A stretch of DNA of 64,000 nt from a virus (lineage: Duplodnaviria > Caudoviricetes): positions 224,001 through 288,000 of IMG/VR virus record IMGVR_UViG_3300037722_000745. One strand, given 5' to 3'. Position 1 is the stretch's first letter. Each line of letters starts with the position of its first letter. Shown one piece after another: positions 6,913 to 62,451 of the stretch. The notes under the pieces were generated by a model that was not told where the DNA came from, searched no databases, and was given only the letters and a program-made list of their open reading frames with translations. The translations under genes were made by a program, and so were the position numbers.

Positions 6913-7863
6913 CTAACCCACATGCCGAAACACTACAAGACGACCTTCCCGCTCCGCCTGGCGAATGACCGGCGGCAGAGATTCTAAACTCAACCAAGCA
7001 TCCCCGCGGGTGCCGCCCGCAAAATCCGTGTCGTCGTAGTGTGCCGTCAGACAGATGCCCGCGTCGATGATCTGTAGAGTCCGAGCGTCGCATGTGCACT
7101 CGTAACGCCGCCCACCCATCCGGAACCGCACGACCATCTCGTTGCGTCGCGGGGCCTGCCGGTGATCGAGATACTCAGCCTCACCAACCGCGAGAGCCGC
7201 CCGAGCCGCGGTCCCGAAATCCTCTTGGGCCAACGCCCGCCGGCCAGCACCATCACCGAGCTGCTCCGCGATCTCCCGACGACGGGTTTCCCGCTGCCGT
7301 TCCTCTTCCTCACGCTGAAGGCGTTCCGCCAGCTCCCGCCGACGCCGCTCCGCCTCCAACCGCCGCCACCGCTCAAGCGTGAAGGCGACATCCAAAGCCG
7401 GCGACACCTCTCGGATATCAGCTAGCGTATCCTTGCCGTCCAGAAAGGCCGTCTGCACCTCGAACTCGGGCCCCAGAGGCATTTCTTGCTGGATGTAGAC
7501 CAACGGGCCGTCCTCGGACACGCGGCCCGCAGAGACCCGTACGAAGCGATCTAGGCCCGGTTCGATGAGATGGACCCGCTCCGTCTCGCTCTTAAAGGAG
7601 GCGAGCTTCCTTTGCGAAGCCGACACGAGCCGATCGCCGACCAGGTAGCCTACCTCTCGGTACTTGAGCTGCTCCGGCTCGGGATCACACACCTCCTGGA
7701 CCCGAGCCGTCCGACCGCCCACCGAGAACCGAACCCAGCCATGCTCCGCCGGCAGCCGACCCTCGATCACCCACCGACGTGGGCCCGACCGGAGGGACCT
7801 ACCCCCAATCCAAGGCGCGACAAGCGTCTCGCCTTCAGTCGCAAGTAAGTCTCTCCAACCCAT
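6913..7863 (-). CDS. conserved protein of the Ubl operon (coiled coil, Cys-containing C-terminal domain)
   Basis: Start MGWRDLL; charged coiled coil; RYECTCD...DAGICL; 5' part paralogous to 8330..8713. Confidence 0.75.
   Translation of the reverse strand: MGWRDLLATEGETLVAPWIGGRSLRSGPRRWVIEGRLPAEHGWVRFSVGGRTARVQEVCDPEPEQLKYREVGYLVGDRLVSASQRKLASFKSETERVHLIEPGLDRFVRVSAGRVSEDGPLVYIQQEMPLGPEFEVQTAFLDGKDTLADIREVSPALDVAFTLERWRRLEAERRRRELAERLQREEEERQRETRRREIAEQLGDGAGRRALAQEDFGTAARAALAVGEAEYLDHRQAPRRNEMVVRFRMGGRRYECTCDARTLQIIDAGICLTAHYDDTDFAGGTRGDAWLSLESLPPVIRQAEREGRLVVFRHVG
7583..7618. repeat. solitary CRISPR-repeat-like unit (family A) inside a CDS
   Basis: GTCTCGCTCTTAAAGGAGGCGAGCTTCCTTTGCGAA. 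Confidence 0.8.
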
Positions 7864-8084
7864 GGCCCAGCCACCTATTACACCGATTAGGCTGCCAGCA
7901 AACAACCAAAACGAAGGGATTCGCCCCATCAAAGTGGAATTACTACCACTGTCACGGCGTCCAAATTTTGGTTTGGGATGTCACATGAGGGTTAATTAAA
8001 CACCCTGATTTCAACGACGTGTTGGGTTTGGCCTACTTCCTGCAAGCCTGGCGGAGCCCTCCTGGGGCCAAAATGGAGATGAAA

Positions 8085-8300
8085 ATGAAAGACACAGAAC
8101 GCCTGCTGCCCTGGAACCAACACGGCGACATTCACCACACGTTCACGAACAAAGGGTCTGGAATTGTCTACCCGCACGACGAAGGCTTCCACTGGGAAGT
8201 TTTTGGTGGTGGAGACAGCTCCTGGCACGACCAGGCGGAATCTCTACACTCAGCTAAAGCCCACGTAGAAGGCACCTTTGTGGGTCGCGGCCTGATTTAG
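8085..8300 (+). CDS. hypothetical protein (opposite-strand insert)
   Basis: GGAG then ATG at 8085. Confidence 0.55.
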   Translation: MKDTERLLPWNQHGDIHHTFTNKGSGIVYPHDEGFHWEVFGGGDSSWHDQAESLHSAKAHVEGTFVGRGLI

Positions 8301-8329
8301 ATCGACAAGCGGGGCGTCGTCTAATTTCA

Positions 8330-8713
8330 CTACCAGACGACGCCCCCACCTCGTTTTTCAAGCCGGCCCGCAGAGACCCGTACAAAGCGATCTAGGCCCG
8401 GTTCGATGAGATGGACCCGCTCCGCAGCACGGAGAACCTCCCCGTCCGCTTGTCCAGCCTGAACCGAGGACGGTACGAGGCGATCTCCAACGAGATAGCC
8501 AACCTGCCTGTGCCACAGGCTTTCTAACTCAGGTTCGGCCAGAGCCTTGACCTGAGCCTTACGTCCCTCCAACGCAAACTCAATCCAGCCATGCTCTACA
8601 GGAAGGCTCCCCTCGATGACCCAGCGACGGGAGCCCGACCGGAGGGACCGGCCCCCAACCCAAGGTGCGACAATCGTCTCACCTTCTTTCTGAAGTAGGG
8701 TCCTCCAAGTCAT
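8330..8713 (-). pseudogene. truncated 5' duplicate of 6913..7863
   Basis: MTWRTLLQKEGETIVAPWVGGRSLRSG...ERVHLIEPGLDRFVRVSAGR then unrelated tail. Confidence 0.75.
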
Positions 8714-9642
8714 GACTCTCCAACCCTAATCTTCCAGGACTCCAAACTCTCACCACGTCTTCTACGTCGGGCCAACTTCAGTCTTGCTTCGGGGGTACTA
8801 AGAGCCTTCGTTATAGCCTCGCTATGTTTGGCTTTAACTTCGGGGATACTGAGTGTCTGGGCTATAGCCCTACCGCGTTTCTCTTTCTCCCCAGGTTGAG
8901 CCCATTGGCCTTTCATCCTACGACTCATAGCGGCCAGCCGTTCCAAAGTCATTGATGCTTGAACACCAATCTTATGGCGCTTCTTCACCTCAGGTAGGGC
9001 CAGTCTCTTAGCTGCCTCAATGCTTAGCTTCTTTCGCACCTCACTTGTATACCCGGCTTTTTGAAGCTTGATGCGTTGCCCCCTTTCCTCGGCCGAGTAC
9101 CCAGCCCAAGATGCCTTAAGACCCGCACTACGTTTCTCCTTCTCACCGGGTCTGGAGTAAACCTCCAACATCTTAGCTCTACGACGAGCTTTAGAATCAG
9201 GTTGACTGCAGGCCAAGATCAACGCTTCACGGTGCCTAGCCTTTACGTCGGGCCGTGCCATAGCTAACTTTACCCCAGCACTGTTCTTAGCTCGAACCTC
9301 CGGCCTATTCTGAGCCTCTTTCCCAGACACCGACATTTTCCGTCGAGTCTCTGCCGAAGGCTTCCCGTTTGACCCACCTGTCTTCAGATTGTACCCAAGC
9401 GGAGACAGAGAGGTGGCCACCCATTTAATTTCCAGCGCATCCAATTCCTCTTTCGAGGATGCCTCACCAACGACCTCAAACACGAATTTGTCTCGGCCAT
9501 ACTTGGCGATAGCCGCCCGCAAAGCGTGGCAATGGCTGTCAGTCCTGAAATGATGTGACCACCTCTCCGAAGGGTTGATGGTTTGACCGTGGTAACATTT
9601 TCCGCTGACCAAACAACGAATCCTGTAAACCAAACCGTACAC
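8710..9642 (-). CDS. GIY-YIG homing endonuclease with NUMOD3-like repeats
   Basis: GLVYRIRC...YHGQT...R...E..GYN; SAETRRKMS-type basic repeats. Confidence 0.9.
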   Translation of the reverse strand: MYGLVYRIRCLVSGKCYHGQTINPSERWSHHFRTDSHCHALRAAIAKYGRDKFVFEVVGEASSKEELDALEIKWVATSLSPLGYNLKTGGSNGKPSAETRRKMSVSGKEAQNRPEVRAKNSAGVKLAMARPDVKARHREALILACSQPDSKARRRAKMLEVYSRPGEKEKRSAGLKASWAGYSAEERGQRIKLQKAGYTSEVRKKLSIEAAKRLALPEVKKRHKIGVQASMTLERLAAMSRRMKGQWAQPGEKEKRGRAIAQTLSIPEVKAKHSEAITKALSTPEARLKLARRRRRGESLESWKIRVGES

Positions 9643-9652
9643 AACCGCAGTT

Positions 9653-11590
9653 TTAGCAAAAGGCTGCTGGCTTCTGCAACAGATCCGTCTTGAGAATGGT
9701 TTCCACGAGGGTTACTCGCGGAGCGGCCTTTACCACTGCCCTACCTACCGGCGTGGCAGCGATCATGGCTCGGATGGTAGGCGGGATCGCGTAGGGATCC
9801 GCGAAGATCCCCTCGTCGATCATGAAGCACGGGATGCCGAGTTGGGCTGCCGTGTCCGTGACCGCGTGGTACATGGGGGAGCTGCGGACCTTCAAGAAGC
9901 CAAATGCAATCGGGTTGAGGCCCGAAGCTTGGACCGCCTTATGGAACGGGCCAGCCTCCTCATCTCCGACGAAGATAAACAACACATCCTCGTCCGGCTG
10001 AGGCTTATGTTGATTGAGAGCCCGAACCCCCGCTCCGTAGTCAGTCCCTCCTCCTGCATGGATCCCGCGGAACGCCTGTTCGACGCCCGCTGCGGATTCA
10101 TGCTTAAGGGCAATCTCTCGCCCCGTAGTGTTGAAGACCGAGATGTGCACCTGGTCCTTGGGGAAGCCCTGTAGGAACTTCGCCAAGTAGCGCTTGGCTT
10201 CGGTGATCGCGTTCTGCATGGATCCCGAGATGTCCACCATGAAGTAGATCCGCAAACCCTTCACGACTTCCTCGACCGCCGCCTTGAGGGCGTTGTCGGC
10301 CGCCTCGTTCAGCTTCTCTTGGGTCGCCTTCGACCGCACTCGGGTCGCGATGTTCGCTGCCCGCATGTCGTCGGCTTCCTTAGTGGCACACTCCCACCGC
10401 TCTCGAATCTCCTGGACCTCAAGAAGTCCAAGCTCTTCGAGCGTTGGGGTTGCGATCAAAAGGTCCTTGTTGGAAAGAGACCCTGCCTCGATGGCTGCCG
10501 CCACAATCGCCCGCGTCAGCCCCATACCCTTCGGCAGGAGCCCCACGATGCGCTTGAAGTTAGGCTTGGTCGCAACGATAGTCTCGCAGACCTGCTCCTC
10601 CGAAAGGCCCTCCCAGGACTCCGCAGCCTTGACAGCCTGGCCGATGGCGACGGTACGGTGACCCTCGTCGGCCTGCTGCTGCCCCCACCGCAGCGTCTCG
10701 AAGAACTTTGGTGAGGTCGGCTTGTACCGGCAGGCGATGGCGAGTTCGATCACCTTCGTCCGGAAGCCCGCCTTGACGAGGCCCTCCAACATCTGAGGGT
10801 TCTCTTCACGGTACCGGAGCCACTTCTCCGCCGCCTTGGGCCAACGACCCATGAACGGCCGACGAGCGGACTTGCCAAAGCCCAGCTCCCGGTTGATCTC
10901 GGCCACCTGCGGCAGCCGTAGGATGTCGTGGATCCGCATTAGAAGCTTGGGATCGAATGTCTTGATCTCGTTCTTCTGTTGTGCCCCGTCACCTTGAGAG
11001 CGGGACCGGGTGAGCAGCAGCATGGCCTCACCGACATCCCGGTAATCCTCGTCGAAGAACAGGACCTTGCCGTTCTCAACAACCGGGTCACCCTTGCGGT
11101 ATTGCACGAGCATGAACGCCGCGAGAATGACCTTCAGGTCCCGGTGCTCCTGCCCGAATGCGTAGCTGGCCCACTTGGCGGCGAACTCGTTGTCGAGCTT
11201 CCAGACCTCGGCGACCTGCTTGTACATCCAGATCACGACCTCCGGGTAGAGGCCGGGCGGCTGGTAGCGACCAACAGCGCGGTTGCCGTCCTTAACGATG
11301 ACATCGCCCTGAAGCACTGGGGCGAGCGTCGCGGGGTTCCGACCCGTGGTCATCTTCCCGAGCTTGACCTTGGTGCCCTTCCGACGGCCCACGCCCTTGC
11401 GAAGCTCGTAGACGATCTTGTCGCCCTCTTCCTCTGCGTGGGTCACCGGCAGCCACTTCGTGCCCACCACGGAGCCAGGATCTGGAATCACTACGCCTGG
11501 TCGGTTGTGCATTGCGTGATCAGAATACGAGAGGACCGTCTGGAGGATTCTCTCAGCCGGCCCGAGTGCGTTCTGTTCGTGATTTGGCAC
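9653..11590 (-). CDS. vWA-domain protein with large helical N-terminus (possibly TROVE/Ro60-like)
   Basis: MIDAS motif FMVDISGSM, GGTDY, FVGDEE; GTG start at 11590 after GAGG. Confidence 0.8.
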   Translation of the reverse strand: MPNHEQNALGPAERILQTVLSYSDHAMHNRPGVVIPDPGSVVGTKWLPVTHAEEEGDKIVYELRKGVGRRKGTKVKLGKMTTGRNPATLAPVLQGDVIVKDGNRAVGRYQPPGLYPEVVIWMYKQVAEVWKLDNEFAAKWASYAFGQEHRDLKVILAAFMLVQYRKGDPVVENGKVLFFDEDYRDVGEAMLLLTRSRSQGDGAQQKNEIKTFDPKLLMRIHDILRLPQVAEINRELGFGKSARRPFMGRWPKAAEKWLRYREENPQMLEGLVKAGFRTKVIELAIACRYKPTSPKFFETLRWGQQQADEGHRTVAIGQAVKAAESWEGLSEEQVCETIVATKPNFKRIVGLLPKGMGLTRAIVAAAIEAGSLSNKDLLIATPTLEELGLLEVQEIRERWECATKEADDMRAANIATRVRSKATQEKLNEAADNALKAAVEEVVKGLRIYFMVDISGSMQNAITEAKRYLAKFLQGFPKDQVHISVFNTTGREIALKHESAAGVEQAFRGIHAGGGTDYGAGVRALNQHKPQPDEDVLFIFVGDEEAGPFHKAVQASGLNPIAFGFLKVRSSPMYHAVTDTAAQLGIPCFMIDEGIFADPYAIPPTIRAMIAATPVGRAVVKAAPRVTLVETILKTDLLQKPAAFC

Positions 11591-11635
11591 GATCCACCTC
11601 TCTCGCAACCCTCCGCATGGGAGGGGAATTGCCGC

Positions 11636-11654
11636 GTCTCGCCTCAGCGAGCAA
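11636..11654. repeat. short-loop hairpin repeat (family B)
   Basis: GTCTCGCCTCAGCGAGCAA in the 5' leader of the vWA gene. Confidence 0.8.
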
Positions 11655-11781
11655 ATTACCGCTAAGGAGGATGACGGCGCCCGTGGTGTCTACTACACCG
11701 AAAAGCCAGAACTCGACCGAGTTAAAGAGAGCGGGTTTTTGCTGGACCCTGGATTCCCCCGGAAGGGCAGGTCGAGTTTAG

Positions 11782-11853
11782 TCGGGGTGACAGGGATCGA
11801 ACCTGCGACCTCTCGCCCCCAAAGCGAGCGCTCTACCACTGAGCAACACCCCG
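11782..11853 (-). tRNA. tRNA-Pro(TGG)
   Basis: CGGGGTG/CACCCCG, loop TTTGGGG. Confidence 0.9.
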
Positions 11854-11905
11854 AGAAATCTGTTATACGCTGGCTAGACTACGACAACCACGTGCTCCGA
11901 GAGAT

Positions 11906-12136
11906 TTGACCGTGGATCACACCTACGACCGCCGCCCGAAGACCGCCACTGATCGCGAGTTCCAAGAGATGGCCGAGATCTACCTCAAGAAGCTCGGCTA
12001 CTCGCCTAAGCAGGTCCGCAGCTGGACTCGCAACATGGCCCAGGCCATCGAGAAGGCGTTGAAGTCCTCGCGTGAAACTCGCGAAGTTGAATACCATATC
12101 GGTCTCGAAGAGGAAGGCGAGGAACGTCTTCGCTAA
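11906..12136 (+). CDS. hypothetical protein
   Basis: ORF with plausible composition. Confidence 0.5.
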   Translation: MTVDHTYDRRPKTATDREFQEMAEIYLKKLGYSPKQVRSWTRNMAQAIEKALKSSRETREVEYHIGLEEEGEERLR

Positions 12137-12336
12137 CCATCAGACTTCACCCCGGTTCTTCGTTTTCCATACGTTCTGTATCTGTGACACAAGGCGCACA
12201 CCACGTCGCATTTGGCAGCCTCTTCCTTGGTTCGTTTGAGAGAGCCCGTCCTGCTTGCCGAGCCGAGATCGAACGCCTTAGTTCTTGGATCGCGATGATC
12301 GAAGTCCATCGCCCAATACGGATGCGAATACCACGG
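12133..12336 (-). pseudogene. HNH endonuclease C-terminal fragment
   Basis: MDFDHRDP...EAAKCDVVCALCHRYRT; N-terminus replaced by tRNA sequence. Confidence 0.75.
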
Positions 12337-12377
12337 GTGTTCCCGAAACAGGCGTCCTACCAGTGGACTACACCCCG
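12337..12377 (-). pseudogene. tRNA-Pro(CGG) 5' half
   Basis: CGGGGTG, D-arm, CCTGT-TTCGGGA-ACA then abrupt switch to HNH sequence. Confidence 0.65.
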
Positions 12378-12378
12378 G

Positions 12379-12450
12379 TACGCGCAGAAGGATTTGAACC
12401 TTCATTTCTCGCTCATCAGACGAGGGTCCTAACCGTTGGACGATGCGCGC
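12379..12450 (-). tRNA. tRNA-Ile(GAT)
   Basis: Cloverleaf, loop CTGATGA. Confidence 0.85.
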
Positions 12451-12534
12451 GTGGTCTGAAATTATGCTGCAAGCCGGCACAGGTGTTCGTACTACGACCT
12501 ACGCACGGCTCAAGCTCGGAAAGCCAGTTTGAAG

Positions 12535-12597
12535 AGTATAGCGAGTTTTACCCAAGTTTAGCGTGATCCAGATAAACTCAGGTAAACTCGCTATACT
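12535..12597. repeat. long imperfect inverted repeat
   Basis: AGTATAGCGAGTTTTACCCAAGTTTA ... TAAACTCAGGTAAACTCGCTATACT. Confidence 0.75.
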
Positions 12598-12617
12598 TCC
12601 GCCCCCAAGACGACGAT

Positions 12618-13222: not shown

Positions 13223-13243
13223 GTTGAGCCTCGCTAGGATGGG

Positions 13244-13687: not shown

Positions 13688-13706
13688 GCTGAAAAGACTA
13701 CACCAG

Positions 13707-14573: not shown

Positions 14574-14609
14574 GTCCCACTCTTGATGGAGGTGGGCTTC
14601 CCTTACCAT
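14574..14609. repeat. solitary CRISPR repeat (family A)
   Basis: First 28 nt identical to the array repeat at 19755. Confidence 0.9.
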
Positions 14610-16875: not shown

Positions 16876-16911
16876 GTCTCACTCTAGAGGGAGGTGAGCT
16901 TCCCTCGCAAC
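16876..16911. repeat. solitary CRISPR-repeat-like unit (family A)
   Basis: GTCTCACTCTAGAGGGAGGTGAGCTTCCCTCGCAAC, 4 nt upstream of tRNA-Arg(TCT). Confidence 0.85.
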
Positions 16912-18050: not shown

Positions 18051-18158
18051 CGTCTCGCCGCAGCGAGCAATGAGTGCATGACTACACCAAGCCAACAAGC
18101 GCTGATGGAAGCAGGCCAGTTGCGTGACTACGTAGTGGACCTGTCGGGAGTTGAACCC
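18051..18158. repeat. 108-bp cassette, copy 1 (family B hairpin, GGTGTA motif, tRNA-Ala 3' end)
   Basis: Matches 19438..19545 with 2 mismatches. Confidence 0.9.
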
Positions 18159-19355: not shown

Positions 19356-19391
19356 GTCTCGCTCTTAGGGGAGGCGAGCTTCCTTTGATCC
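19356..19391. repeat. solitary CRISPR-repeat-like unit (family A)
   Basis: GTCTCGCTCTTAGGGGAGGCGAGCTTCC, 14 nt upstream of tRNA-Leu(CAA). Confidence 0.85.
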
Positions 19392-19437: not shown

Positions 19438-19545
19438 CGTCTCGCCGCAGCGAGCAATGAGTGTATGACTACACCAAGCCAACAAGCGCTGATGGAAGCA
19501 GGCCAGTTGCGTGACTACGTGGTGGACCTGTCGGGAGTTGAACCC
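19438..19545. repeat. 108-bp cassette, copy 2
   Basis: See 18051..18158. Confidence 0.9.
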
Positions 19546-19754: not shown

Positions 19755-20009
19755 GTCCCACTCTTGATGGAGGTGGGCTTCCGTTGTGACCGTGCGGATT
19801 TCGGAGATGACGCTGAAGCCGTCATCGGTCCCACTCTTGATGGAGGTGGGCTTCCGTTGTGACTTCGCTCCGATCGCAATCCCGCAGGATCGCGACCAGC
19901 CGTCCCACTCTTGATGGAGGTGGGCTTCCGTTGCTGCCAGGCAGGACGGCTCGAAGTGGCTAAGATGATGTTGGTCCCACTCTTGATGGAGGTGGGCTTC
20001 CGTTGCTGC
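19755..20009 (-). CRISPR. CRISPR mini-array, 4 x 36-nt repeats, 3 spacers (37, 38, 36 nt)
   Basis: Repeat GTCCCACTCTTGATGGAGGTGGGCTTCCGTTG(TGA/CTG)C at 19755, 19828, 19902, 19974; orientation inferred from leader position and tRNA strand. Confidence 0.95.
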
Positions 20010-20170
20010 AGTGCGCTCAAAAAGACCTAAAATTTCCAAAGAGCTGAGAGCCGGATTGCGAGAGCCTCTGCAAACTCCCGCTAAATCCGACTCCATGGAG
20101 AGTACTACACTGTTCACAGAGAGCGCAAGACCCTAAATTCATTGTCTTGCGAGCGATCCCCGGGCTCCAG
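20010..20170 (-). promoter_or_regulatory. putative CRISPR leader
   Basis: Non-coding, AT-richer, near-IHF-consensus ATTCATTGTCTTG. Confidence 0.55.
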
Positions 20171-20896: not shown

Positions 20897-21295
20897 TGGA
20901 CTCGGTGGGAATCGAACCCACGTCCTAGAAAGCTATCGAACAGCGTCTACGTGCGTAGCGTGACTTCGGACTCGGTTAAGGTCGTGCCCATGCCTCACGC
21001 CGGCTTCCACCTGGGGCGTGACTGGTTTTCCAGTCTTGCCTCCACCACCGATCTAGCGACCTAAGGTCTTGCGACCCGTTTCCCACAGCCAATCGGACTC
21101 TGTGGTGCAGCCCTGCGTTTACTTACGCCGCTCGAAATCGAAGCAGGGAATCTACCCCGAGCGACGGCTCAGGCAGCCTGAGCAAAGCCGTTATAGTTGG
21201 CTTTTCTTGTTTGGTCGGCTTGATAACCCGGCCTGCTGACCAACCGGGGCACGCTGCTGCTCGAATTACCTCCCAGTCGAAACCTTTACGAGCCC
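20897..21295 (-). ncRNA. ssrA: tmRNA
   Basis: GGGCTCG/CGAGTCC acceptor with G3:U70, GGTTTCGAC 5' motif, T-arm, tag ORF ANYNGFAQAA-stop at 21201..21169. Confidence 0.95.
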
Positions 21296-21605: not shown

Positions 21606-21644
21606 TGGTAGCGACGGAGGGAGTCGTCTCGCCTCAGCGAGCAA
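21606..21644. repeat. family B hairpin (21626-21644) fused to a tRNA T-loop-to-CCA fragment (21606-21625)
   Basis: Minus strand TTGCTCGCTGAGGCGAGA-CGACT-CCCTC-CGTCGCT-ACCA. Confidence 0.8.
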
Positions 21645-21659
21645 TCAAGTTGGCGGCCA

Positions 21660-22216: not shown

Positions 22217-22236
22217 TTGTTTGGTTGCGGGAGCCG

Positions 22237-22272
22237 GTCTCGCTCTTTCAGGTGGCGAGCTACCACGGTTTT
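22237..22272. repeat. CRISPR-repeat-like unit (family A variant) between duplicated tRNA-fMet 3' ends
   Basis: GTCTCGCTCTTTCAGGTGGCGAGCTACC; GTTGCGGGAGCCGG at 22224 and 22281. Confidence 0.8.
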
Positions 22273-22281
22273 TCAAACCAG

Positions 22282-22353
22282 TTGCGGGAGCCGGAATCGA
22301 ACCGACGAGGCTTGGGTTATGAGCCCGAGTTGAGGGCCAACACTCTTCCCGCG
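22282..22353 (-). tRNA. tRNA-fMet(CAT), degenerate D-arm
   Basis: C1:A72 mismatch, GGG/CCC in anticodon stem, loop CTCATAA. Confidence 0.75.
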
Positions 22354-22472: not shown

Positions 22473-22508
22473 GTCTCACTCTTGTAGGGGGTGAGCTTCC
22501 CTTACTCC
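22473..22508. repeat. solitary CRISPR-repeat-like unit (family A)
   Basis: GTCTCACTCTTGTAGGGGGTGAGCTTCC. Confidence 0.85.
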
Positions 22509-22940: not shown

Positions 22941-22976
22941 GTCTCGCTCTTGAAGGAGGCGAGCTTCCTTTGCGAG
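22941..22976. repeat. solitary CRISPR-repeat-like unit (family A)
   Basis: GTCTCGCTCTTGAAGGAGGCGAGCTTCCTTTGCGAG. Confidence 0.85.
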
Positions 22977-33945: not shown

Positions 33946-34368
33946 TCAATGGGACCGCCGACTCACTAAACCTTCGGCCACCAACACATCACAGACGAAC
34001 GAAACCTGGGCAATTCCAGGATCATCACTGAACCACTCAACGTGAAGCCGTTGGTCTGAGATCACCTCATTGTCCCTTAGGCGTTTGCAACGATCACGGC
34101 AGAAAGACCTCTGGAGCCCGGTCACCTTGGAGAGCTTGTCGGGGTTGGTTGTCCCACTGTGCGGAATCGCCAACAACAAGAGAGCAGAGCTTCTCTGTGT
34201 GCCTTCCAGCTCCATCTCGTCAAACAAGAGAGCAGAGCTTCTCTGTGTGCCTTCCAGCTCCATCTCGTCAAACGCCTGGTTGATGAATTTCAAAGCCTCG
34301 TCGGTCAGCGGGTGGTAAACCTTTCGGCTACGGCGCTTGCGGCCTGGAATCGCTTTTCCGTCCGCCAC
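33946..34368 (-). CDS. putative winged-helix DNA-binding protein with 16-aa tandem duplication (start uncertain)
   Basis: NPDKLSKVTGLQRSFCRDRCKRL HTH-like segment. Confidence 0.5.
   Translation of the reverse strand: MADGKAIPGRKRRSRKVYHPLTDEALKFINQAFDEMELEGTQRSSALLFDEMELEGTQRSSALLLLAIPHSGTTNPDKLSKVTGLQRSFCRDRCKRLRDNEVISDQRLHVEWFSDDPGIAQVSFVCDVLVAEGLVSRRSH
34175..34270. repeat. perfect 48-bp tandem duplication
   Basis: Encodes FDEMELEGTQRSSALL twice. Confidence 0.95.
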
Positions 34369-48677: not shown

Positions 48678-51600
48678 TCAGGCCCCGTGCTCAAATACCT
48701 TCCCTAGCACTCTCCACTCAATTGTGTGAGCTGCTTCTCCAGTGACCCGGATCAAGACGTCTTGAGAGGATACGGCCAAGGTCACATCCCATGCAGAAGC
48801 CCCGGCTGATTCGTACGACGTGACCACTTCATCTAAGGAGGTCACAGCGCTGGCGCCGTCCCGGTTGAACGTGGCTAGGAACTTCTGGCGAATTGTATCG
48901 TCCGTAGCTTCTCGCCCAACGACCGTGAACTCTAGCTCGATCACTCGCTCATCCGCTAAGGTCGAATACGTCGCTATGGTGGTGACTGTCGCGTCGGTTG
49001 TTTGCACTGTGGCATCAAGGAACGTCTGGCCTGGGAACAGCACCGAGAGTGCATCAGCCGCTGTAAGGCCACCTAAAGCTCCAGCAGCAGTACGACCGAC
49101 GATCCTTGATGCAGCAACGGCCAGGCCCCCCACGTTGCCGCCTGCGGGGCGAGCAACCAACTCATCCTCACCGACCGCCAATGCCGAAATCGATCCACTA
49201 GTCTGACGGCCCAAGACCGTCTCTTCTGCAACCGTCAGAGCTACTGGGGTGTCATCACTGTCAGCCTTGAGGATCGTGTTGGCATCAAAGATAGATGCCT
49301 CCACCCCTCGAAGCATGGCCACAACTGCCCACCGGGCTCCTTGCAGATCATACTGAATGAAGACTGACTCACCGTGAGCCAGTCTGTAGTCCACAGACCC
49401 AGGACAGTTAAACCTATCCACTGCTGCTGCACCAACATCTTCATGGGCCAGCACCACATCCGTGAGTCGGAAGTTGGTCAGCTTTTTGATCAGAACATCG
49501 GTAGTAAAGGTTACGTCCAACCCTTGAAGCGTCAAAGCACCAGGGCCACCCGCAAAGAGGACAGAGATTGCTCCTGACCAACCAGTGGGTGCGTAGGCAG
49601 CAACCGACCCCGCAGACGTAGTGTCCACCAAGTAATCGGTAGCCTGTCTTTGCAATAAGCTGAGGACTTGGCTCGAATCGAGAGCAGCAATCACCCCACC
49701 GGTCTGCCTGCCCAAGACCGTCTCTTCCGAGACTGTCAGAGCTACTGGGGTGTCATCACTGTCAGCCTTCAGAATCGTGTTAGCGTCGAACAGTGACGCC
49801 TGGACACCAGAAGAGATCGTATCCAGGAGGATCCATCGAGATGTCGAGAAGTTGTACTGGAAGACGATCGACTCGGTTGGCGCTAGCGTGAAATCAACTG
49901 CACCAGGACAGGCTATTCTCTCAGTGGCCACCGCGGACCCGCTCTCATGCGCGAAGACAACGTTCGCAGTGCCACCGTTAGTGAACCTCTTCCACGGAAC
50001 CGTCGAGTCAGCGAAGCGATCCATGCCCTGGATGGTAAGCAGGCTAGCTCCCGTCCAATGCACAGCGTACGCCCCATCGAATCCACCCGGAGCGTAGGCC
50101 GCTTCAGTCCCAGTCGTGCTATCAGTAACCTGACCGGCGATTCCAGCCAACAGGATGTGAAGCGCCTGGTAATCTTCGAGAGGGCCTAGGTCTCCGGTCA
50201 GACTTCGGCCAAGCAGTCGTAGTGCTCCAACGGAGATAGCAGTGATGTCTGCCCCTTGCCTACCAAGGACCGCGTTGGTTCCAACCGTCAGGGCTACTGG
50301 GGTGTCATCACTGTCAGCCTTGAGGATCGTGTTGGCGTCAAAGAGAGTGGCGCTAATACCACCGCTACCAGCCGGCGGAAGAGGGATGATCCACCGCGTT
50401 GCCGTCGTGTCGTAGAACAGCTGGACGTACTCGTCAGGCCCAACTGTGTAGTCAACATCCCCAGGCAAATCGAAGCGGTTGGTGGGGCCAGATCCAGTGT
50501 CCTCATGCGCAAGGACGAGATCTGTTGTCCCATAGTTCCTGATGACCCTCCACAAGTACTGATCATTGTCAGACGCAGTTGGGGCATCCAAACCAGTGAC
50601 TGTGATTACGTCTGTGTTCGGGGCGACCTTGTAATACCGGGCCCCTGTGTTACCCCACAAATTATTCAGCGTTTGTGGCCCTGCAAGGGCTCCTTCGTCG
50701 AAGATCGTGTTGTCGACCAAGTACCCCAGCTCTGCCTTGGACAGAGATTTCAGGTCGTTCCCCTCACTGCGGCCTAGAACGCCATCTGTACCCAAGGAGA
50801 CTGCGCCCGTTATCCCTGTCCCAACTCGAGCGACAGCTGAGTTCTCTCCAGGATTTATGGCATCTAGTGCGCCGAACTCGTCGACCGAAACCAAACCGTT
50901 GGCTCCGTTGCCAACTTTAGGGTGTAACCACCCATTGGTGACTCTCCACCCATCACGATCGGCATCAAACTGACACTCTACGTAGGAGTGGACCCCTACG
51001 AACTGAATGGATCCGACACCATCTCTGCCAACGGTCAGGTCTATGACCTTGCCGTTACCGCTTACGGTCAACTTGTTGGTCCCATTAGCGTTGGGACCAT
51101 CCTCATAGAAGCCCACCCTATCATCCGCACTAGGAGAACTTGGGAGTGAAGCTGTGATTCCGGATACCTCACTGTCCCACCGCATGATTTTCCCAGCAAC
51201 CGCGTTGAAAGACAAAGCTTGGACAGCCGTGTCGAACGCCAAGCCACTACTAGTACCTGCCGCGCCTGCGGCGACAACAAACCAACGAAGTTGCCCAGAA
51301 GCGTCATAGACCACAGAGACTGCTTCACCAGGAGCCACTGTGTAGTCGGTTGCTCCTGGCAGTCTGAAACGGTTGCTCGCTACACTACCGGCGTTTTCGT
51401 GGCTGAGAACTAGATTTGTGGTGCCATCGTTCCAGAGAACTCGCCAATAGTAGAAACTGTTGTCCGACGCGTTTGGAGCATCGATTCCAGTGAGTGTGAC
51501 GATGTCTGTATTGGGGGCAATACGTACTTGCCGTGAGCTACTGGAAAAAGCGTTGTGGATCGTGGCTGGCCCCGCGGTGGCCCCAGCATTGAAAATGGTC

Positions 51601-56575: not shown

Positions 56576-56871
56576 GCCAAGTCAAATTCAAAACCCCGTT
56601 CATTGGGAAACGAATCGAGATCATGGCCGGCTGGGATCGGCCGCTCCAGCACTACTTCCTGACCATCTTCAACCTGGACGAAGACGAAGATGAAGTCTAC
56701 TGGAGTACCCTGGACTTCCCGTCCGACGAGGACAACCACGGGACCGAGCGGCTACGCCGCCAGCTCGACAGCATGGGCATCCCGGCCCCTGAGGGCTTCT
56801 GGGAGCGCGTCGAACGCCAGGAAGGCAACGTCAACCACGACTTCAAGGACGGCGCCTGGGAAAGCTACTGA
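56572..56871 (+). CDS. hypothetical protein
   Basis: 4-bp overlap. Confidence 0.7.
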   Translation: MSQVKFKTPFIGKRIEIMAGWDRPLQHYFLTIFNLDEDEDEVYWSTLDFPSDEDNHGTERLRRQLDSMGIPAPEGFWERVERQEGNVNHDFKDGAWESY

Positions 56872-56971
56872 TGGGTTGGGTTTCCAAAATGATGCCGCCG
56901 CAGGCACTGATCATCCGAACACACCGTCTGGAAGCGACGATTCGGAACCACGCTCATGGTCGGCTAGCATC

Positions 56972-57520
56972 GTGAGGTTCTTCTACCCCAACAAACCGAC
57001 CCGAGTCTACACGCCCGACCGAGTCATCCCGCGATTAACAAACCCCGCACAATGGGTTGTACAGCCCAAGTGGGACGGGAAGCGGGCCGAGATCTCGTGC
57101 GAGGCCGGGAAGGTCATGCTGCGCAGCCGGGAAGGCCGAGAGTGGCCGGACCAGCGTTGGGGCTGGCTTGCGAGGTTGCCGCTACCCCAACCGTGGTTTC
57201 TCGACGGCGAGCTGACCAGGGACAACTATCTCCATGTGTGGGATTACGCTGTCCTAGGGGGCGAGTTGAAGTTCCGGGAACCCTACCAAGACCGCCTTGA
57301 ACGGCTTCAAGAGCTTCTACCGAAGCTGCTGGTCCAGGAGAACCAGACCCTTGTGCCTATCGAGACGAGGCCGGCAACGGAGTACGAAGAGGTCCTAAAG
57401 CGGGAAGGCGATCCCCATCTCGAGGGCGTAGTTTGGAAGAATCTCCAAGGCACCGATTTTTGGGGCCCCTGGTCGACGAACACGATCTCGAGCCAGCTCA
57501 AATTCAGGTTCAACCCGTGA
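56972..57520 (+). CDS. ATP-dependent ligase adenylation domain (no OB-fold domain)
   Basis: QPKWDGKR, RSREG, FLDGEL, HVWDY, EGVVWK motifs; ends soon after motif IV. Confidence 0.8.
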   Translation: MRFFYPNKPTRVYTPDRVIPRLTNPAQWVVQPKWDGKRAEISCEAGKVMLRSREGREWPDQRWGWLARLPLPQPWFLDGELTRDNYLHVWDYAVLGGELKFREPYQDRLERLQELLPKLLVQENQTLVPIETRPATEYEEVLKREGDPHLEGVVWKNLQGTDFWGPWSTNTISSQLKFRFNP

Positions 57521-58044
57521 GGGTGGAAGTCGGCACACGGTTCCGAGCCCCCTACGAGGCTACCAAAGTCACCTGGGAGATCTACCGTAAGACGGCTGAC
57601 GGCCGCTGGCTCGCACGCATCGAGGATGATGAGATTGCGGGTGACATCGGAACCTTCACGACACGGCAGATCGAACAGCACTTGGGTTATGAGCAGGAGT
57701 TACGCCGAGCCCAGATCGATCATGAGAAGTTCTACCGCAGTCTGCCGATTGGGAAGATCGTCCACTACCACGACGGTCATAACCGATTCGTTCGTTGTGA
57801 GGTGACTTCCGATCGCAAACTCAAGGCCATCGCATTGGTCGGCAATTGGCGCCCTGACGAATTGCCTCACAATCGCACAGACGGATCTAGGATTGTACCC
57901 TTCCACTCCCAGAGGGTTCTCCGCGGAGACGTCTTTGAACCTAGAGCACACACCGTGTACGAAGCGCTCTACGAAGCATATGAACACGATGATCCAGCAC
58001 TCATGGACCCACGAGGGCTGCCAGATCTAAAACTCCAAATCTAA
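57517..58044 (+). CDS. hypothetical protein
   Basis: GTG start overlapping the ligase stop. Confidence 0.65.
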   Translation: MRVEVGTRFRAPYEATKVTWEIYRKTADGRWLARIEDDEIAGDIGTFTTRQIEQHLGYEQELRRAQIDHEKFYRSLPIGKIVHYHDGHNRFVRCEVTSDRKLKAIALVGNWRPDELPHNRTDGSRIVPFHSQRVLRGDVFEPRAHTVYEALYEAYEHDDPALMDPRGLPDLKLQI

Positions 58045-58083
58045 ATTTTTTAAGATCCCGTCGTGGTCAGTTGTATAAACAGT

Positions 58084-58989
58084 ATGACCACGAAAAACCC
58101 AAACAGTCGTCTTCGGACGGCTATCGCAGCCCCCCGAGGCAAATCCCTTTTCAACGTCGATCCCGCGTCTCTGCTGATCATCGGCTTCGACACGGTGCCA
58201 GGTATGGACCGGCCCCACAAGCGTGGCGAACACGTGCTGTGGCAGGCCCGTGCCCTGGAGCCGGTGGACCCCGACCTGGTCAACAGCATGATCGAGGACG
58301 GCTTCACGTCGGTCATCAACGTCCGCAAAGACGGGCCGAACCTCGAAGTCGTGGTCGGCCGGCGTCGAGTCAAGGCGGCTCGTCGTGCCAACGAGATCCT
58401 GGAAGAGCGTGGGCTCCCCCTGATCAAGGTCCAGTGCGAGGTTGTCAAGGGCAACGCCATCAGCCTATTCGGCCGCGTGATCTCGGAGAACGCCCTACGC
58501 AAGGACGTGCATCCGATCGACATGGCCGACGACCTTCAGCGGTTCCTCGACTTCGGAGCGACCGAAGAGGAGGCCGGTCGGCGTTGCGGCAAGACCATCC
58601 AGCAGTTGCGGATCACCCTCAAGCTGCTCGATCTCGATGAGGTCGTCCAGAAGGCCATTCGCGATGGCGTCTTGTCGGTCACGGCCGGCATCAAGCTGGC
58701 AGACCTGACTCGCGCCGATCAGAAGACCCAGCTCGCTAAGGTCATCACCGGCCAGGCAGGGCGGACGGTTGCCGCGGTGGCGTCGGTCGTCAAGGCCAAC
58801 CAGAACGGAGGGGATGCCGTCCAGGCTCCAGGGAAGCGTCTTCTGAAGAAGCTGCTGGCCTCCGACGAGGCTGTTACCGTCTTCGGTGAGGACGGCATCA
58901 AGGCCCTTCGGTTCGCCATGGGCGACTTGCCGGTCACGAGCTTCGCCGGCCTGACCGCACTGATCCGCGAGGTCAAGTCCGCGAAGTAG
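58084..58989 (+). CDS. ParB/Srx-family protein
   Basis: VVVGRRRVKAA box, ENALRKD, HTH region. Confidence 0.8.
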   Translation: MTTKNPNSRLRTAIAAPRGKSLFNVDPASLLIIGFDTVPGMDRPHKRGEHVLWQARALEPVDPDLVNSMIEDGFTSVINVRKDGPNLEVVVGRRRVKAARRANEILEERGLPLIKVQCEVVKGNAISLFGRVISENALRKDVHPIDMADDLQRFLDFGATEEEAGRRCGKTIQQLRITLKLLDLDEVVQKAIRDGVLSVTAGIKLADLTRADQKTQLAKVITGQAGRTVAAVASVVKANQNGGDAVQAPGKRLLKKLLASDEAVTVFGEDGIKALRFAMGDLPVTSFAGLTALIREVKSAK

Positions 58990-59102
58990 GGGTGGGGTCC
59001 TAGGGGCCACACCCACCCTACTCCCAAAATCCAACCTACTTATACTTTTACATGGAACTAGTCTGGCTTCCCGCGTAAAATATACCGAGCAGGCAACCCA
59101 AC

Positions 59103-59429
59103 ATGGCACACAACACCATACCACCTGAGTCTCCTCTTCATCCCAGGTTGAAGCTGAAATTGGTCCAAGCCCTGGACAACACTGAGTACATCTACGAAGT
59201 CGCCAAGCAACTCGTAGGTGCATTTCACGAGCTGGATCGGGGGACTGTCCAGCTGGTCGGACAAGAGGATCCAACCACTCTCAAAGCTGAGATCGACGCT
59301 AGCCTTCAGGCGGCCGAAGAGGCCCAGAACAACGTGAAGGCATTGTACGCGCTGCTGGAACTTCATAAGAGCATCCTGCTAGAGGCTAAAGAGCAGCCCG
59401 TTCTGAGACCCCAGGACCAGGTACACTAG
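59103..59429 (+). CDS. hypothetical protein
   Basis: 108-aa helical ORF. Confidence 0.6.
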   Translation: MAHNTIPPESPLHPRLKLKLVQALDNTEYIYEVAKQLVGAFHELDRGTVQLVGQEDPTTLKAEIDASLQAAEEAQNNVKALYALLELHKSILLEAKEQPVLRPQDQVH

Positions 59430-59598
59430 TGGCCCACACTCGAGACCTGAGAGAGTTGGATCGCTACTTGATCGAGATCCGCAAGGAGCGTCCCTTCCAA
59501 CTACCGGCCGGCATGATTCCTGCCCCCGCTCGTTTTGAGGAAGAGAATCCCCATCCTTTGGATCTAGCCACGGACCGGCCGACTGTACTTGAGATGGC

Positions 59599-60225
59599 TT
59601 AGCGAGGCTGCACGGGGGGTTCGACACCCCAACGGGAACTCGGGTCCAGCTGGATCAAGTCAAAGTAGTCTTGCCTCTCGCAGCACGGAATGATCCAGGG
59701 CGTCAGGTCAACCAGCAGGGCATGGTTGACCAATAGAACCCGACCAACTTGGCCGGTGCGCAACTCGTAGGGGTGGATGTTTTCGAACTCTGCGTGTAAA
59801 CGCCACACCTCGCTCACAATGTGATCCAGATCTACACTGTCACCGTCTAAACGCAGGCGATCAATCGTTTGATGCACTGAGCAGTTCCACAGCCAGAACA
59901 ACCGACGGATGTACTTTGGTTCGACCGCCGGGTTAGGGTTGCTTCCGACCTTGACGGAGTGCGTTCGTAGCTTCTTGACAAGGGGATGGTCTCGCAACAG
60001 TAACCGGTGGATGGCGTGAGGTAACGCATACCGGTCCTCTGCCGCCATCTGCAGGGCATAGAGAACCGCTTCGTAGTGCCCGTCATAGAGCACCCCACCT
60101 GGCTCTGAGCTACCCGGCTGGGGATCCATCTTGTTTGACTCCGTGACAAACTCGTGCGCCCAATCCGAAGGCACTCCCGCCTGACGAAACAACTCCTCGA
60201 TTGTATGCGCAGTGGCGATCTTCAT
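59599..60225 (-). CDS. Fic-domain protein with degenerate motif
   Basis: HAEFENIHPYELRTGQVGRVL versus canonical HPFxDGNGRxxR. Confidence 0.75.
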   Translation of the reverse strand: MKIATAHTIEELFRQAGVPSDWAHEFVTESNKMDPQPGSSEPGGVLYDGHYEAVLYALQMAAEDRYALPHAIHRLLLRDHPLVKKLRTHSVKVGSNPNPAVEPKYIRRLFWLWNCSVHQTIDRLRLDGDSVDLDHIVSEVWRLHAEFENIHPYELRTGQVGRVLLVNHALLVDLTPWIIPCCERQDYFDLIQLDPSSRWGVEPPVQPR

Positions 60226-60458
60226 GGTTTCTGCCTGAGCCGCCGACTGGCTGCTCGAAGAGGTGTGGCCGACCGTCGGGTCACTTCGACCGAAGTCCCC
60301 CTATCAATCCCCAATGCCTCACGTAACAGCGCCTTCAGCACCGTCTGCCATTTCCCCCTTCGGCTCAAGGCTTCTTCCCGGATGGCTAATTCTAGGTCAG
60401 CTGGGAGTCTAATCGACACCGGGCGGCTCACCTTGGCTGTGTTTTTACGTGGTGGCAC
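60222..60458 (-). CDS. RHH/BrnA-like antitoxin-type protein
   Basis: VSIRLPADL...WQTVLKALLREAL. Confidence 0.7.
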   Translation of the reverse strand: MPPRKNTAKVSRPVSIRLPADLELAIREEALSRRGKWQTVLKALLREALGIDRGTSVEVTRRSATPLRAASRRLRQKP

Positions 60459-60460
60459 CT

Positions 60461-60712
60461 CTAGTCCTTACGCTTCCGAGAAGCATTGCGAAGCAAACGT
60501 TTGATCGCGATCCGTTGAGCCTGTGTTGGGTTCCGGTGTATTGGACCCGGAGGCTTTCTCCAGCCGTAGTAGGTGGCTTCGTTCGTCAGACCCACTTCGA
60601 TCAACCACTGGAGGTACGTCTGATAGGGGATCTTATGATACGCAGCACCTTGCCTTGCCAACTCCAGCACGTCAGCTTTGATCTTCATTGTGATCGACTT
60701 CTTAGTCGCCAT
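60461..60712 (-). CDS. RHH/BrnA-like antitoxin-type protein
   Basis: ITMKIKADVLELARQGA...IPYQTYLQWLI. Confidence 0.7.
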   Translation of the reverse strand: MATKKSITMKIKADVLELARQGAAYHKIPYQTYLQWLIEVGLTNEATYYGWRKPPGPIHRNPTQAQRIAIKRLLRNASRKRKD

Positions 60713-61259
60713 GGATGACCCTACACCGGATATAGACACAGTGGCGCCTCTACTGGAGGCACTCACGAAACAACTCATCCAAAAGCTCTCGAAGATCTTC
60801 GAGGTAGAGACAATGCAGGATTTCCTATTTGGATCCACACGCCAAATAGAAGTTCCCGTTGCCCTCCAAGGGGTCCCTGTCGAGATCAAATTCGAGATTG
60901 GACCCCGAACCAAACTCTCAATCCGTATTGACTATGGTCGACCTCGCCGTTGGTTGTGTTCGGAGCGAATTCGCATGGCTCGGGTACTACGCCATATTGT
61001 ACAAGAGGTTCACCTAGCCCTCGAGAGGCACAAACAAGAGGCTGACCTTCGACGTAGAGCTGAACAGGCCCAAGAAGCCTTTGATCGTCTGACCACCGAA
61101 CTTGGGTTCACTTCTGATGGCGGTCAAGTGAAGAAAGGACGGCTCCTACTGGAGTGCCTTCCGAACACCCCTACACAAGTACGCTTGACAATTCTCCTAC
61201 CCCACACGCAAGCTTTGGAGGCGGTCCAGAAGTACTATAGAAAACACAAGGGGGATTGA
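60711..61259 (+). CDS. hypothetical protein
   Basis: Candidate ATG overlaps the divergent start within CCATGG. Confidence 0.55.
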   Translation: MDDPTPDIDTVAPLLEALTKQLIQKLSKIFEVETMQDFLFGSTRQIEVPVALQGVPVEIKFEIGPRTKLSIRIDYGRPRRWLCSERIRMARVLRHIVQEVHLALERHKQEADLRRRAEQAQEAFDRLTTELGFTSDGGQVKKGRLLLECLPNTPTQVRLTILLPHTQALEAVQKYYRKHKGD

Positions 61260-61269
61260 AAAGACGACC

Positions 61270-61968
61270 ATGCAAATACTGGTCATCGATGACGACACCA
61301 ACCCTAACTGCACTGAATGTGTGATGCCGAAACGTAAAGACGAGCAATGGTTTCTGTTCGATTTGGATAGCTCCCTTGCGGACTTCGAAACGGTGATGAT
61401 CGAGGAACTCGTTGCGATGCAGCAACCGGAGGAACCCCCACTTTCCACTGAGCATTGGTACCCAAACCGATTGCCAGATTGGCTTGTAGCCCGTAAGGAC
61501 GCAATCAAAAAGGCCCACGGCTTTTGGCTCGGCCTGCCCCCAATCAAATTCGGGATCGAACTCTACCACGCAGCCGGTCAGTGGGGCTACGAACGGATGA
61601 TCCTAACCAAAGGACCGAGACGGGTTGTGAACGCCTGGACTGAGAAGGTTCAGTGGTGTCAAAAGTATGTCCCCGAAGCAGGGATCACCATCACCCACGA
61701 CAAAGGTCTCGTCTATGGTAAGGTGCTTTACGACGACTTCCCGCCGTATATCCTTCGCTGGTTGGAGTGGAGGCCCCGCGGAAAGGTTCTCATGCTAGAC
61801 GCTCCGCACAATCAGGGCTTCAAACATCCCAATGTTCTGCGTTGTTTCCGAAGTCCTTTGGCAGAGCAGGCGGACGCGATCAGGGGCTTCTTAGGGATCA
61901 GCGACCCTCCAGAGAAGCACTCCACAGCCGCGCCGGTGACGCCGGCTGTGGAGGACCATGAACCATAA
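61270..61968 (+). CDS. HAD-family 5'(3')-deoxyribonucleotidase-like protein
   Basis: FDLDSSLADF, ILTKGP, EK..W, DK..V.G.VLYDD. Confidence 0.8.
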   Translation: MQILVIDDDTNPNCTECVMPKRKDEQWFLFDLDSSLADFETVMIEELVAMQQPEEPPLSTEHWYPNRLPDWLVARKDAIKKAHGFWLGLPPIKFGIELYHAAGQWGYERMILTKGPRRVVNAWTEKVQWCQKYVPEAGITITHDKGLVYGKVLYDDFPPYILRWLEWRPRGKVLMLDAPHNQGFKHPNVLRCFRSPLAEQADAIRGFLGISDPPEKHSTAAPVTPAVEDHEP

Positions 61969-61970
61969 AA

Positions 61971-62167
61971 TTTCAATTACGAGGGAGGCTTTCACCTCCC
62001 TCAGGCTCGATGAGCCTACGAGCTTTTCGAGAGCCTCAGTGGTGTGTTACCCTCGGGAGTCTCTCGCAACCCTGAGAGTTCCTTGAAAATTCAATAGGTT
62101 AGATGGATCCGGATCCCGCCGCTCTCGCAGCCTGAGGGAGGCTTTCACCTCCCTCGTAATTGAAAAC
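61971..62167. CRISPR. inverted pair of 36-nt CRISPR-like repeats flanking a leader-like segment (no spacer)
   Basis: GCCTGAGGGAGG(loop)CCTCCCTCGTAATTGAAA at 62130..62165 and inverted at 61971..62006; CTCTCGCA x2 around near-IHF ATTCAATAGGTTA. Confidence 0.55.
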
Positions 62168-62327
62168 CATTAGCGTCCCGGTGATCAACAGCCAACGTTG
62201 CCCCACATGAGCAGTTGCGAAGCTCGATCTGTCCGCCCAGACCATCGAGCTGAAAACCAATGAATTTCAGCTCTTCCTTGGTTTTGTAGGAAACCCCACA
62301 ACAGGTGCAAGTAACGATCGTTCGCAT
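62145..62327 (-). CDS. small Zn-binding hypothetical protein
   Basis: CTCC and CSC motifs; stop lies within the repeat. Confidence 0.55.
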   Translation of the reverse strand: MRTIVTCTCCGVSYKTKEELKFIGFQLDGLGGQIELRNCSCGATLAVDHRDANGFQLRGR

Positions 62328-62415
62328 GGCTTTGGATCGTATTACAACCTAACGGAGCCAAAATTTAAAGAACCGGTGTAGTGTTGTCTGGCCGATGCCG
62401 CAGCGAAAGGGGCCC

Positions 62416-62451
62416 CCGCAAGGGAAGCTCACCTCCCTAAAGAGTGAGACT
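62416..62451. repeat. solitary CRISPR-repeat-like unit (family A), opposite orientation
   Basis: CCCGCAAGGGAAGCTCACCTCCCTAAAGAGTGAGAC between a GGTGTAGT motif (62375) and the protease gene. Confidence 0.85.

Follow-up and report, generated by a model that had tools for sequence, protein, structure and literature searches.

Type V-M systems (formerly V-U1), built around the effector Cas12m (Wu 2022; Omura 2023, PMC10442227; Bigelyte 2024, PMC11013384), are the closest described relatives of the elements reported here. Their characterised CRISPR repeats share a 36-nucleotide (nt) length, a 5′ part rich in A, a pseudoknot formed by a short helix and a 5-bp stem, a G that precedes the stem and an AC that follows it. 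CRISPR RNA (crRNA) repeats are given for four enzymes by Bigelyte et al. (PMC11013384, Table S5), the Cas12m2 scaffold described by Omura et al. (PMC10442227) comprises 36 nt with a pseudoknot, a stem, a helix flanked by a G·A pair and a 5′ end that is disordered, and type V-M effectors process their own pre-crRNA (PMC11013384, PMC10442227). Single CRISPR repeats that keep the repeat fold also occur on phages (Faure 2019; PMC10651486), RNA anti-CRISPRs (Racrs) have been proven for types I-C, I-E, I-F and V-A (Camara-Wilpert 2023, PMC10651486), and repeat-like regulatory RNAs are widespread (Shmakov 2023, PMC10120712). Here the analysis concerned a window of 64,000 nt, bases 224001–288000 of the 323,174-bp IMG/VR virus record IMGVR_UViG_3300037722_000745 (about 68% complete according to CheckV), in which a 36-nt repeat occurs both in a mini-array within a tRNA cluster and as dispersed solitary units that, as in the phage examples, keep the repeat fold.

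On the transcribed strand, the repeat (referred to below as family 2) combines a 5′ part rich in A with a pseudoknot helix of 3 bp and a 5-bp stem, and ends in AC. The Ms, Tf, Ap and Un repeats of Cas12m in PMC11013384 Table S5 align with it, and all the Cas12m2 scaffold features of PMC10442227 fit the units. The repeat is therefore a member of the type V-M (Cas12m) family, and the alignment bears out an earlier reading of this DNA (the original prediction) in which the solitary units were taken to be CRISPR-repeat derivatives. The locus differs from the characterised type V-M systems in that the copies are mostly solitary and dispersed, the array lies in a tRNA operon and the record holds no Cas12m gene.

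A pattern scan of metagenomes recovered the same repeat family on other, phage-like contigs. One of these (L014), which carries phage-type genes, has a 7-repeat array followed by a T5orf172-domain gene and then by a 794-amino-acid (aa) protein that matches Cas12m structures in the PDB (E 4e-24) and the PADLOC Cas12u1 model (E 1e-44). A word-based homologue search with this effector returned the query alone; an exhaustive search, used instead, gave 132 relatives at E below 1e-30, and the three of them that were inspected have the T5orf172 neighbour as well. In a second, independent contig of 152 kb (L031), a family-2 array comes after an effector 45% identical to that of L014. Because the L014 and L031 arrays lie beside Cas12m-like genes, the cognate effector of the repeat family is a Cas12m-like protein and not Cas6. 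These linked effectors, paired with a T5orf172 gene on phage-like contigs, measure 700–800 aa compared with about 600 aa for the characterised enzymes. In all four loci examined, a T5orf172/MUG113-domain gene was present just upstream of the Cas12m-like effector (L014:9746-10264, L030:9354-9932, L031:8978-9529 and L032:489-932), which makes it a possible conserved accessory gene in this V-M-like subgroup. Family-2 repeats arranged nearly back to back were seen at L014:7321-7454 and L023:3485-3552, the “spacers” of −4, 7 and 18 nt being too short for guides (the negative value marks a 4-nt overlap between the two L023 repeats). The repeat pattern matched no other IMG/VR record and, among 185,579 species-representative bacterial and archaeal genomes, gave one chance-like match in a Rhodococcus coding region and no host array.

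A degenerate 28-nt core pattern found exactly 12 sites in the window, corresponding to eight solitary units and the four array repeats, against a chance expectation of 0.01, and none of 100 shuffled sequences reached 12; the eight lone units and the four-repeat array thus lie where they had been predicted (Table 1). Scanning the whole record with the pattern added one further intact solitary unit outside the window (genome 195664), giving nine intact units in total. A covariance model run over the record added just three or four weaker copies, so that intact units far outnumber decaying ones. Letter-for-letter identical sequence was assembled from several further sediment and soil runs, so the solitary units are not an assembly artefact. 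Contigs from four other samples were likewise identical and gave no variants and no presence/absence polymorphism of the units.

The predicted stem classes CCCAC/GTGGG, CTCAC/GTGAG and CTCGC/GCGAG were all recovered, with compensatory change keeping the structure. The loop had been said to drift, which is only partly right: no more than four loop positions vary, and three loop bases pair upstream of the stem. Specifically, NCC in the loop pairs with GGN upstream of the stem to form the 3-bp pseudoknot helix, which covaries among A-U, U-A and C-G. Across 21 sequences from this genome and from metagenomes, the 5-bp stem and the pseudoknot both covary, with 98% of cells paired, 13 double-change cells and none of 500 shuffles reaching the score. 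In the nine intact solitary units, the eight constrained columns (unpaired columns invariant across the wider repeat family) differed in 0/72 cells, as against 51/108 (47%) for 12 free columns, a comparison in which apparent conservation is inflated since the pattern used to find the units requires the core. Changes in paired columns among the same units were nearly all compensatory. Thermodynamic folding of single units was unremarkable (z −0.4 to −2.2), so that support for the structure comes from covariation and from published cryo-electron microscopy work and not from folding energy. The scaffold is under purifying selection. Since it is the protein-binding scaffold that is conserved, the units most likely work as RNA to which a Cas12m-type effector binds, and we consider it highly probable that they are effector-binding scaffold RNAs under selection. 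The proposal that they work at the RNA level is also sensible in view of their co-orientation with transcription.

Table 1. Repeat-derived features of the record (window positions, unless marked as genome positions).
Feature	Coordinates	Strand	Description
Mini-array, family-2 (type V-M-like) repeat	19755..20009	-	four 36-nt repeats, three spacers of 36-38 nt; last repeat ends 4 nt before tRNA-Asp
Array leader	20010..20150	-	carries CTCGCAATCCGGCT ... TTGGAA
Solitary unit	7583..7618	-	stem CTCGC/GCGAG; in frame within conserved gene of ~320 aa (6913-7932, -)
Solitary unit	14574..14609	-	stem CCCAC/GTGGG; 39 nt after tRNA-Gln; terminator-like hairpin 14 nt downstream
Solitary unit	16876..16911	-	stem CTCAC/GTGAG; 33 nt after tRNA-Cys, 4 nt before tRNA-Arg(TCT)
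Solitary unit	19356..19391	-	stem CTCGC/GCGAG; 14 nt before tRNA-Leu(CAA), 47 nt after solitary Cas12j-repeat half
Solitary unit	22237..22272	-	pseudoknot variant GGU/ACC; 8 nt after tRNA-Met, 20 nt before tRNA-Pro
Solitary unit	22473..22508	-	stem CTCAC/GTGAG; one A·C mismatch in pseudoknot helix; 26 nt after tRNA-Glu
Solitary unit	22941..22976	-	stem CTCGC/GCGAG; 32 nt after tRNA-Asn, 45 nt before tRNA-Trp
Solitary unit	62415..62450	+	stem CTCAC/GTGAG; 5′ leader of plus-strand M10-like metallopeptidase gene, sense to local transcription
Diverged copy	genome 202553		covariance model; 2 nt before start codon
Diverged copy	genome 49877		covariance model; 14 nt before start codon, ribosome-binding site in between
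Diverged copy	genome 73399		covariance model; degenerate, antisense
Diverged copy	genome 297913		covariance model; decayed
Cas12j-repeat half	18052..18071	-	between tRNA-Thr and tRNA-Ser
Cas12j-repeat half	19439..19458	-	between tRNA-Ala and family-2 unit 19356
Cas12j-repeat half	21626..21645	-	followed by tRNA 3′-end-like 24-mer
Cas12j-repeat half	11636..11655	-	27 nt before 651-aa VWA-like gene
Cas12j-repeat half	4545..4564	-	77 nt before tRNA-Arg(ACG)
Cas12j-repeat half	976..995	-	followed by 15-nt tandem repeat

The array and each of the nine intact solitary units run in the sense direction of the genes around them, whereas copies in both orientations would be expected of a mobile palindrome. 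As predicted, seven of the solitary units in the window share the minus sense of the array and the tRNAs, and the copy at 62415 is plus-sense ahead of a plus-strand gene. The first 24 kb of the window contain 42 tRNA genes and a transfer-messenger RNA (tmRNA), every one on the minus strand; the phage-borne tmRNA (20897-21295, -) has the tag ANYNGFAQAA and lies within the tRNA cluster. Six units lie between tRNAs, 8–39 nt after the preceding tRNA (the 19356 unit follows a Cas12j half-repeat), with 4, 14, 20, 45 or 45 nt to the next tRNA, the 14574 unit facing a terminator-like hairpin instead. The 4-nt distances from the 16876 unit to tRNA-Arg(TCT) and from the last array repeat to tRNA-Asp, noted originally, agree with the coordinates. 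The 22473 unit is followed by a 45-nt tRNA 3′ fragment and then by tRNA-Phe; no exact match to this fragment was found in the species genomes. In total, the tRNA region, about 20% of the non-coding DNA, holds 6/11 intergenic units (p about 0.01) and 6/8 solitary Cas12j half-repeats (p about 0.001), an excess that is modest but real for the units, with the reservation that block duplications make the placements less than independent. A scan of the tRNA region for sigma-70 promoters and terminators yielded nothing usable save the terminator-like hairpin downstream of the unit at 14574.

In two syntenic relatives the VWA-like gene, the conserved gene and the Gly-Cys-Arg-Arg-Arg order of tRNAs all recur but no unit is present, and the CAAT before tRNA-Arg(TCT) is kept in them though the unit is absent from the spacer. 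The units are therefore recent, lineage-specific additions that tRNA maturation does not require, and the role in tRNA maturation that had been considered is accordingly unlikely. Behind the 22237 unit, 13 nt copy the 3′ end of the tRNA-Met located 44 nt upstream, so that a direct repeat flanks the unit (22217-22236 and 22281-22293, -); it may have arisen through target-site duplication or through spacer-like capture beside a TTC.

The unit at 7583 lies within a gene that has more than a thousand homologues on huge-phage contigs, where it replaces a variable loop right before the most conserved motif, ERVHLIEPGLDRF. The 61 nt after this unit are identical at 60/61 positions to a truncated paralogue (8330-8713), compared with about 75% identity for the sequence before it (blocks compared: 7520-7582 and 8360-8423, -; the paralogue block is preceded by TGC). 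The near-identical block suggests gene conversion or selection at the nucleotide level.

The original statement that no cas genes are visible is true of the window, but a Cas12j gene (CasPhi-2-like; genome 218308-220464), which matches PDB 7lys at E 2e-159, and its 7-spacer array are located 3.5–6 kb before the window start. No close relatives of this gene were found in IMG/VR. In carrying a CasPhi-2-like Cas12j, a 7-spacer array and I-C-like arrays, the genome resembles the Biggiephages (Al-Shayeb 2020, PMC7162821; Pausch 2020). The family-2 repeat differs from the Cas12j repeat in its 11-nt loop with a pseudoknot and in its 5′ part, the shared features being the terminal AC and the stem of one class of units. 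The 12-nt leader motif CTCGCAATNCGG occurs twice in 323 kb (window 20051-20062 and genome 218219-218230, L009:8219-8230, both minus), in each case in an array leader (family-2 and Cas12j, respectively), 37–39 nt before the first repeat and followed by TTGGAA; it may be a common promoter or regulator site. A two-repeat Cas12j mini-array was also observed between two minus-strand genes (genome 194554-194659, L010:4554-4659, -), 23 kb from cas12j.

The solitary Cas12j elements are 3′ halves of the phage's own Cas12j repeat and all keep the one cognate hairpin, CTCGC-TGCG-GCGAG-AC. Three of them directly precede about 24 nt that resemble the 3′ terminus of a tRNA, running from the GA of the T-loop as far as an NCCA-like end (18052-18028, 19439-19415 and 21626-21602, -). 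At 21626, TTC plus the 24-mer gives an exact 23-nt match to real bacterial tRNA genes, and in the intact gene the stretch follows TTC, a T-rich protospacer-adjacent motif (PAM) of the type V kind. For the sequences behind the family-2 units, second matches anywhere in the genome were limited to two, one of 36 nt in the paralogue, preceded by TGC, and one of 13 nt in tRNA-Met, preceded by TTC, neither being a known promoter, and seed matches of 10–11 nt elsewhere in the genome were at chance level. Exact 22-mers of the three array spacers gave no target in IMG/VR.

No Cas12m was found in the 323 kb by tblastn with the L014 protein, by genome search, with the PADLOC Cas12u1 model or with a custom Cas12m-like hidden Markov model built from 90 family members. 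These searches returned just weak C-terminal matches, to Cas12j and to a TnpB. The latter, the second RuvC/zinc-ribbon match, was rejected as a Cas12m candidate, since it is a TnpB some 300 aa long that belongs to an IS607-type pair (genome 292.4-294.6 kb, L011:1384-3185), in which it lies, with a reading frame open over about 314 aa, beside a 203-aa serine recombinase whose N-terminus is MerR-like. A T5orf172 partner gene, Cas6, Cas1 and a Y1 or REP-associated tyrosine transposase (Y1/RAYT; REP, repetitive extragenic palindrome) were likewise not found in the record, both ends of which terminate in repeats.

Taken together, the units are best read, tentatively and with a probability of roughly 0.4, as RNA decoys that occupy a Cas12m-type effector in the manner of Racrs. 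The units would be transcribed within the tRNA precursor or within mRNAs, and RNase P and RNase Z would excise those between tRNAs as short scaffold RNAs that carry hardly any guide or none. Such RNAs could load into a Cas12m-type effector from a rival phage, a mobile element or the host and, like a Racr, crowd out its real guides, while the 3-spacer array may redirect the same effector. This reading is favoured because the record holds no cognate effector, because units located 4, 14 and 20 nt ahead of a tRNA would retain almost no guide, or none, once RNase P has cut, and because near-spacerless repeats also occur in L023 and L014. In addition, the solitary units fall into three stem classes and two pseudoknot classes that mirror other metagenomic arrays (L014, L017, L019 and L022), as expected of mimics of more than one foreign system, in contrast to the solitary Cas12j units with their single hairpin. 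A decoy for host Cas had been proposed originally. The decoy part stands as the best single explanation; a host Cas as its target is doubtful, since the known carriers are phage-like contigs and the 185,579 species genomes lack the repeat subfamily. Compared with known Racrs, there are nine to twelve copies instead of one, the subtype is V-M and several sequence variants occur per genome, and inhibition would be by analogy. The units also lie between tRNAs and in one coding sequence, next to tRNAs or genes of unknown function, whereas known ones lie beside acr genes (no search for Acr was made here).

Several observations weigh against a decoy. The true array, with a leader motif in common with the Cas12j leader, looks like effector use and not inhibition; halves of the phage's own Cas12j repeat, which cannot be decoys for a foreign enzyme, sit in the same places; and one unit in a coding sequence together with two located 2–14 nt before start codons fits handles that act on the transcript bearing them. 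Neither a host nor a rival whose repeat matches could be linked to the phage, and the array spacers had no target in IMG/VR. The region was also sought in RNA runs, none of which carries the window sequence, and since the record is incomplete and has repeats at both ends, the missing part may contain a cas12m gene. The chief alternative, which we regard as doubtful, builds on several of these points and holds that the units are handles for a Cas12m-like effector of the phage itself, encoded in the unassembled third. This effector would bind the scaffold in the tRNA precursor or mRNAs and then cut upstream, or shield or block the downstream RNA; alternatively, the native downstream sequence would act as a fixed guide that targets the homologous DNA of rival phages, own DNA being spared as the repeat end replaces the PAM. 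The 68% completeness, the leader motif shared by two true arrays, the parallel placement of the Cas12j units and the units 2 and 14 nt before start codons are consistent with such handles, as are the unit that sits in frame just ahead of the best-conserved stretch in a widely shared gene and the perfect recurrence in the paralogue of the 36 nt that follow it. However, neither Cas12m nor its T5orf172 partner was found in 323 kb, the array adjoins the effector in both known loci and here lies among tRNAs, the units are heterogeneous with only two or three solitary ones having the array's own stem, and those 4 and 14 nt before tRNAs cannot yield guides. It is rather remote that the phage's Cas12j itself binds or processes the units with CTCGC/GCGAG and AC, whose loop is larger. 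Four or five solitary units have the exact Cas12j stem and terminal AC, a stem class not seen in other loci, the leader motif is common to both arrays and a Cas12j unit lies 47 nt from a family-2 unit. Yet such a stem match is expected by chance for one class in four, the array and five units carry other stems, and the conserved pseudoknot and A-rich part are features of Cas12m that the Cas12j repeat lacks.

It is also unlikely that the units are functionless relics or selfish copies, spread by recombination or as a mobile palindrome of the REP or miniature inverted-repeat transposable element (MITE) type and tolerated in non-coding DNA. Their lineage specificity and absence from syntenic relatives would suit this origin, as would the 13-nt duplication flanking one unit, the tRNA fragment behind another, the replacement of part of a coding sequence by a third and the two decayed copies. 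The absence of changes at constrained positions (0/72, against about half at free ones, with the pattern bias noted above inflating conservation) argues for function instead, together with compensatory changes in both helices, the sense orientation of all nine intact units and clear homology to functional crRNA scaffolds; moreover, the record has no Y1/RAYT transposase, and a flanking duplication is present at one unit only. The original proposal that the units are Cas6 cleavage sites processing phage tRNA and mRNA precursors is close to refuted. Units do lie just upstream of tRNAs (4, 4, 14 and 20 nt), but the repeat belongs to class 2 type V-M, with 2 nt after the stem as against the 8-nt handle of Cas6 substrates, no Cas6 was found in the record, relatives mature the same tRNAs without units, and tRNA 5′ ends are already defined by RNase P. 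An improbable further option is a natural tRNA-guide RNA system, in which Cas12m-type and Cas12j scaffolds in the tRNA operon would be released by RNase P and RNase Z with the native sequence behind them, including tRNA 3′-end fragments that stand after the T-loop TTC (a type V PAM) in intact tRNA genes, as a fixed guide; the complexes would bind or cut rival-phage DNA or host tRNA genes, own copies being spared as the repeat end replaces the PAM. Xie 2015 reportedly engineered polycistronic tRNA-guide RNA arrays, from which tRNA-flanked scaffolds can be released by RNase P and RNase Z; the present case differs in being natural and in having scaffolds mostly without a guide, and its processing would be by analogy. 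The CreR/CreA and crlRNA elements (PMC10120712) offer another parallel, as a lone repeat and the fixed sequence after it could guide a Cas protein with no cleavage involved, and Cas12m, which binds DNA without cutting it, would suit regulation. The units here, in contrast, are not in a cas locus, and no partial match to a cas promoter was found.

Solitary units and Racrs are already established, and no description of type V-M solitary units was found in the literature; a 2026 preprint (10.64898/2026.09.14.751636) presents itself as the first report of phage Cas12m. About a dozen selected, variant Cas12m scaffolds in a tRNA operon and one gene, with Cas12j handles in parallel, suggest that scaffold RNAs are a regular part of phage biology. 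Should the units be decoys, they would indicate warfare among phages equipped with CRISPR enzymes; should they instead be handles for an enzyme of the phage itself, a CRISPR protein would act on the phage's own transcripts. Either way, the units could provide ready-made test RNAs for Cas12m binding and, by analogy, a natural example of guide-scaffold release by tRNA processing.

Other repeats were also observed in the record. Four plus-strand arrays have a 36-nt class-1-like (I-C-like) repeat, the stem of which spans 8 bp and the 11-nt tail of which ends in ATTGAAAC (genome 1-258, 61334-61883, 64596-65586 and 120213-121203), the first of them being cut by the contig end. Within the window, a perfect 48-nt tandem repeat is present in 2.1 copies at 34175-34273, and a 125-nt direct repeat occurs in three copies about 500–550 nt apart at 49183-50360.

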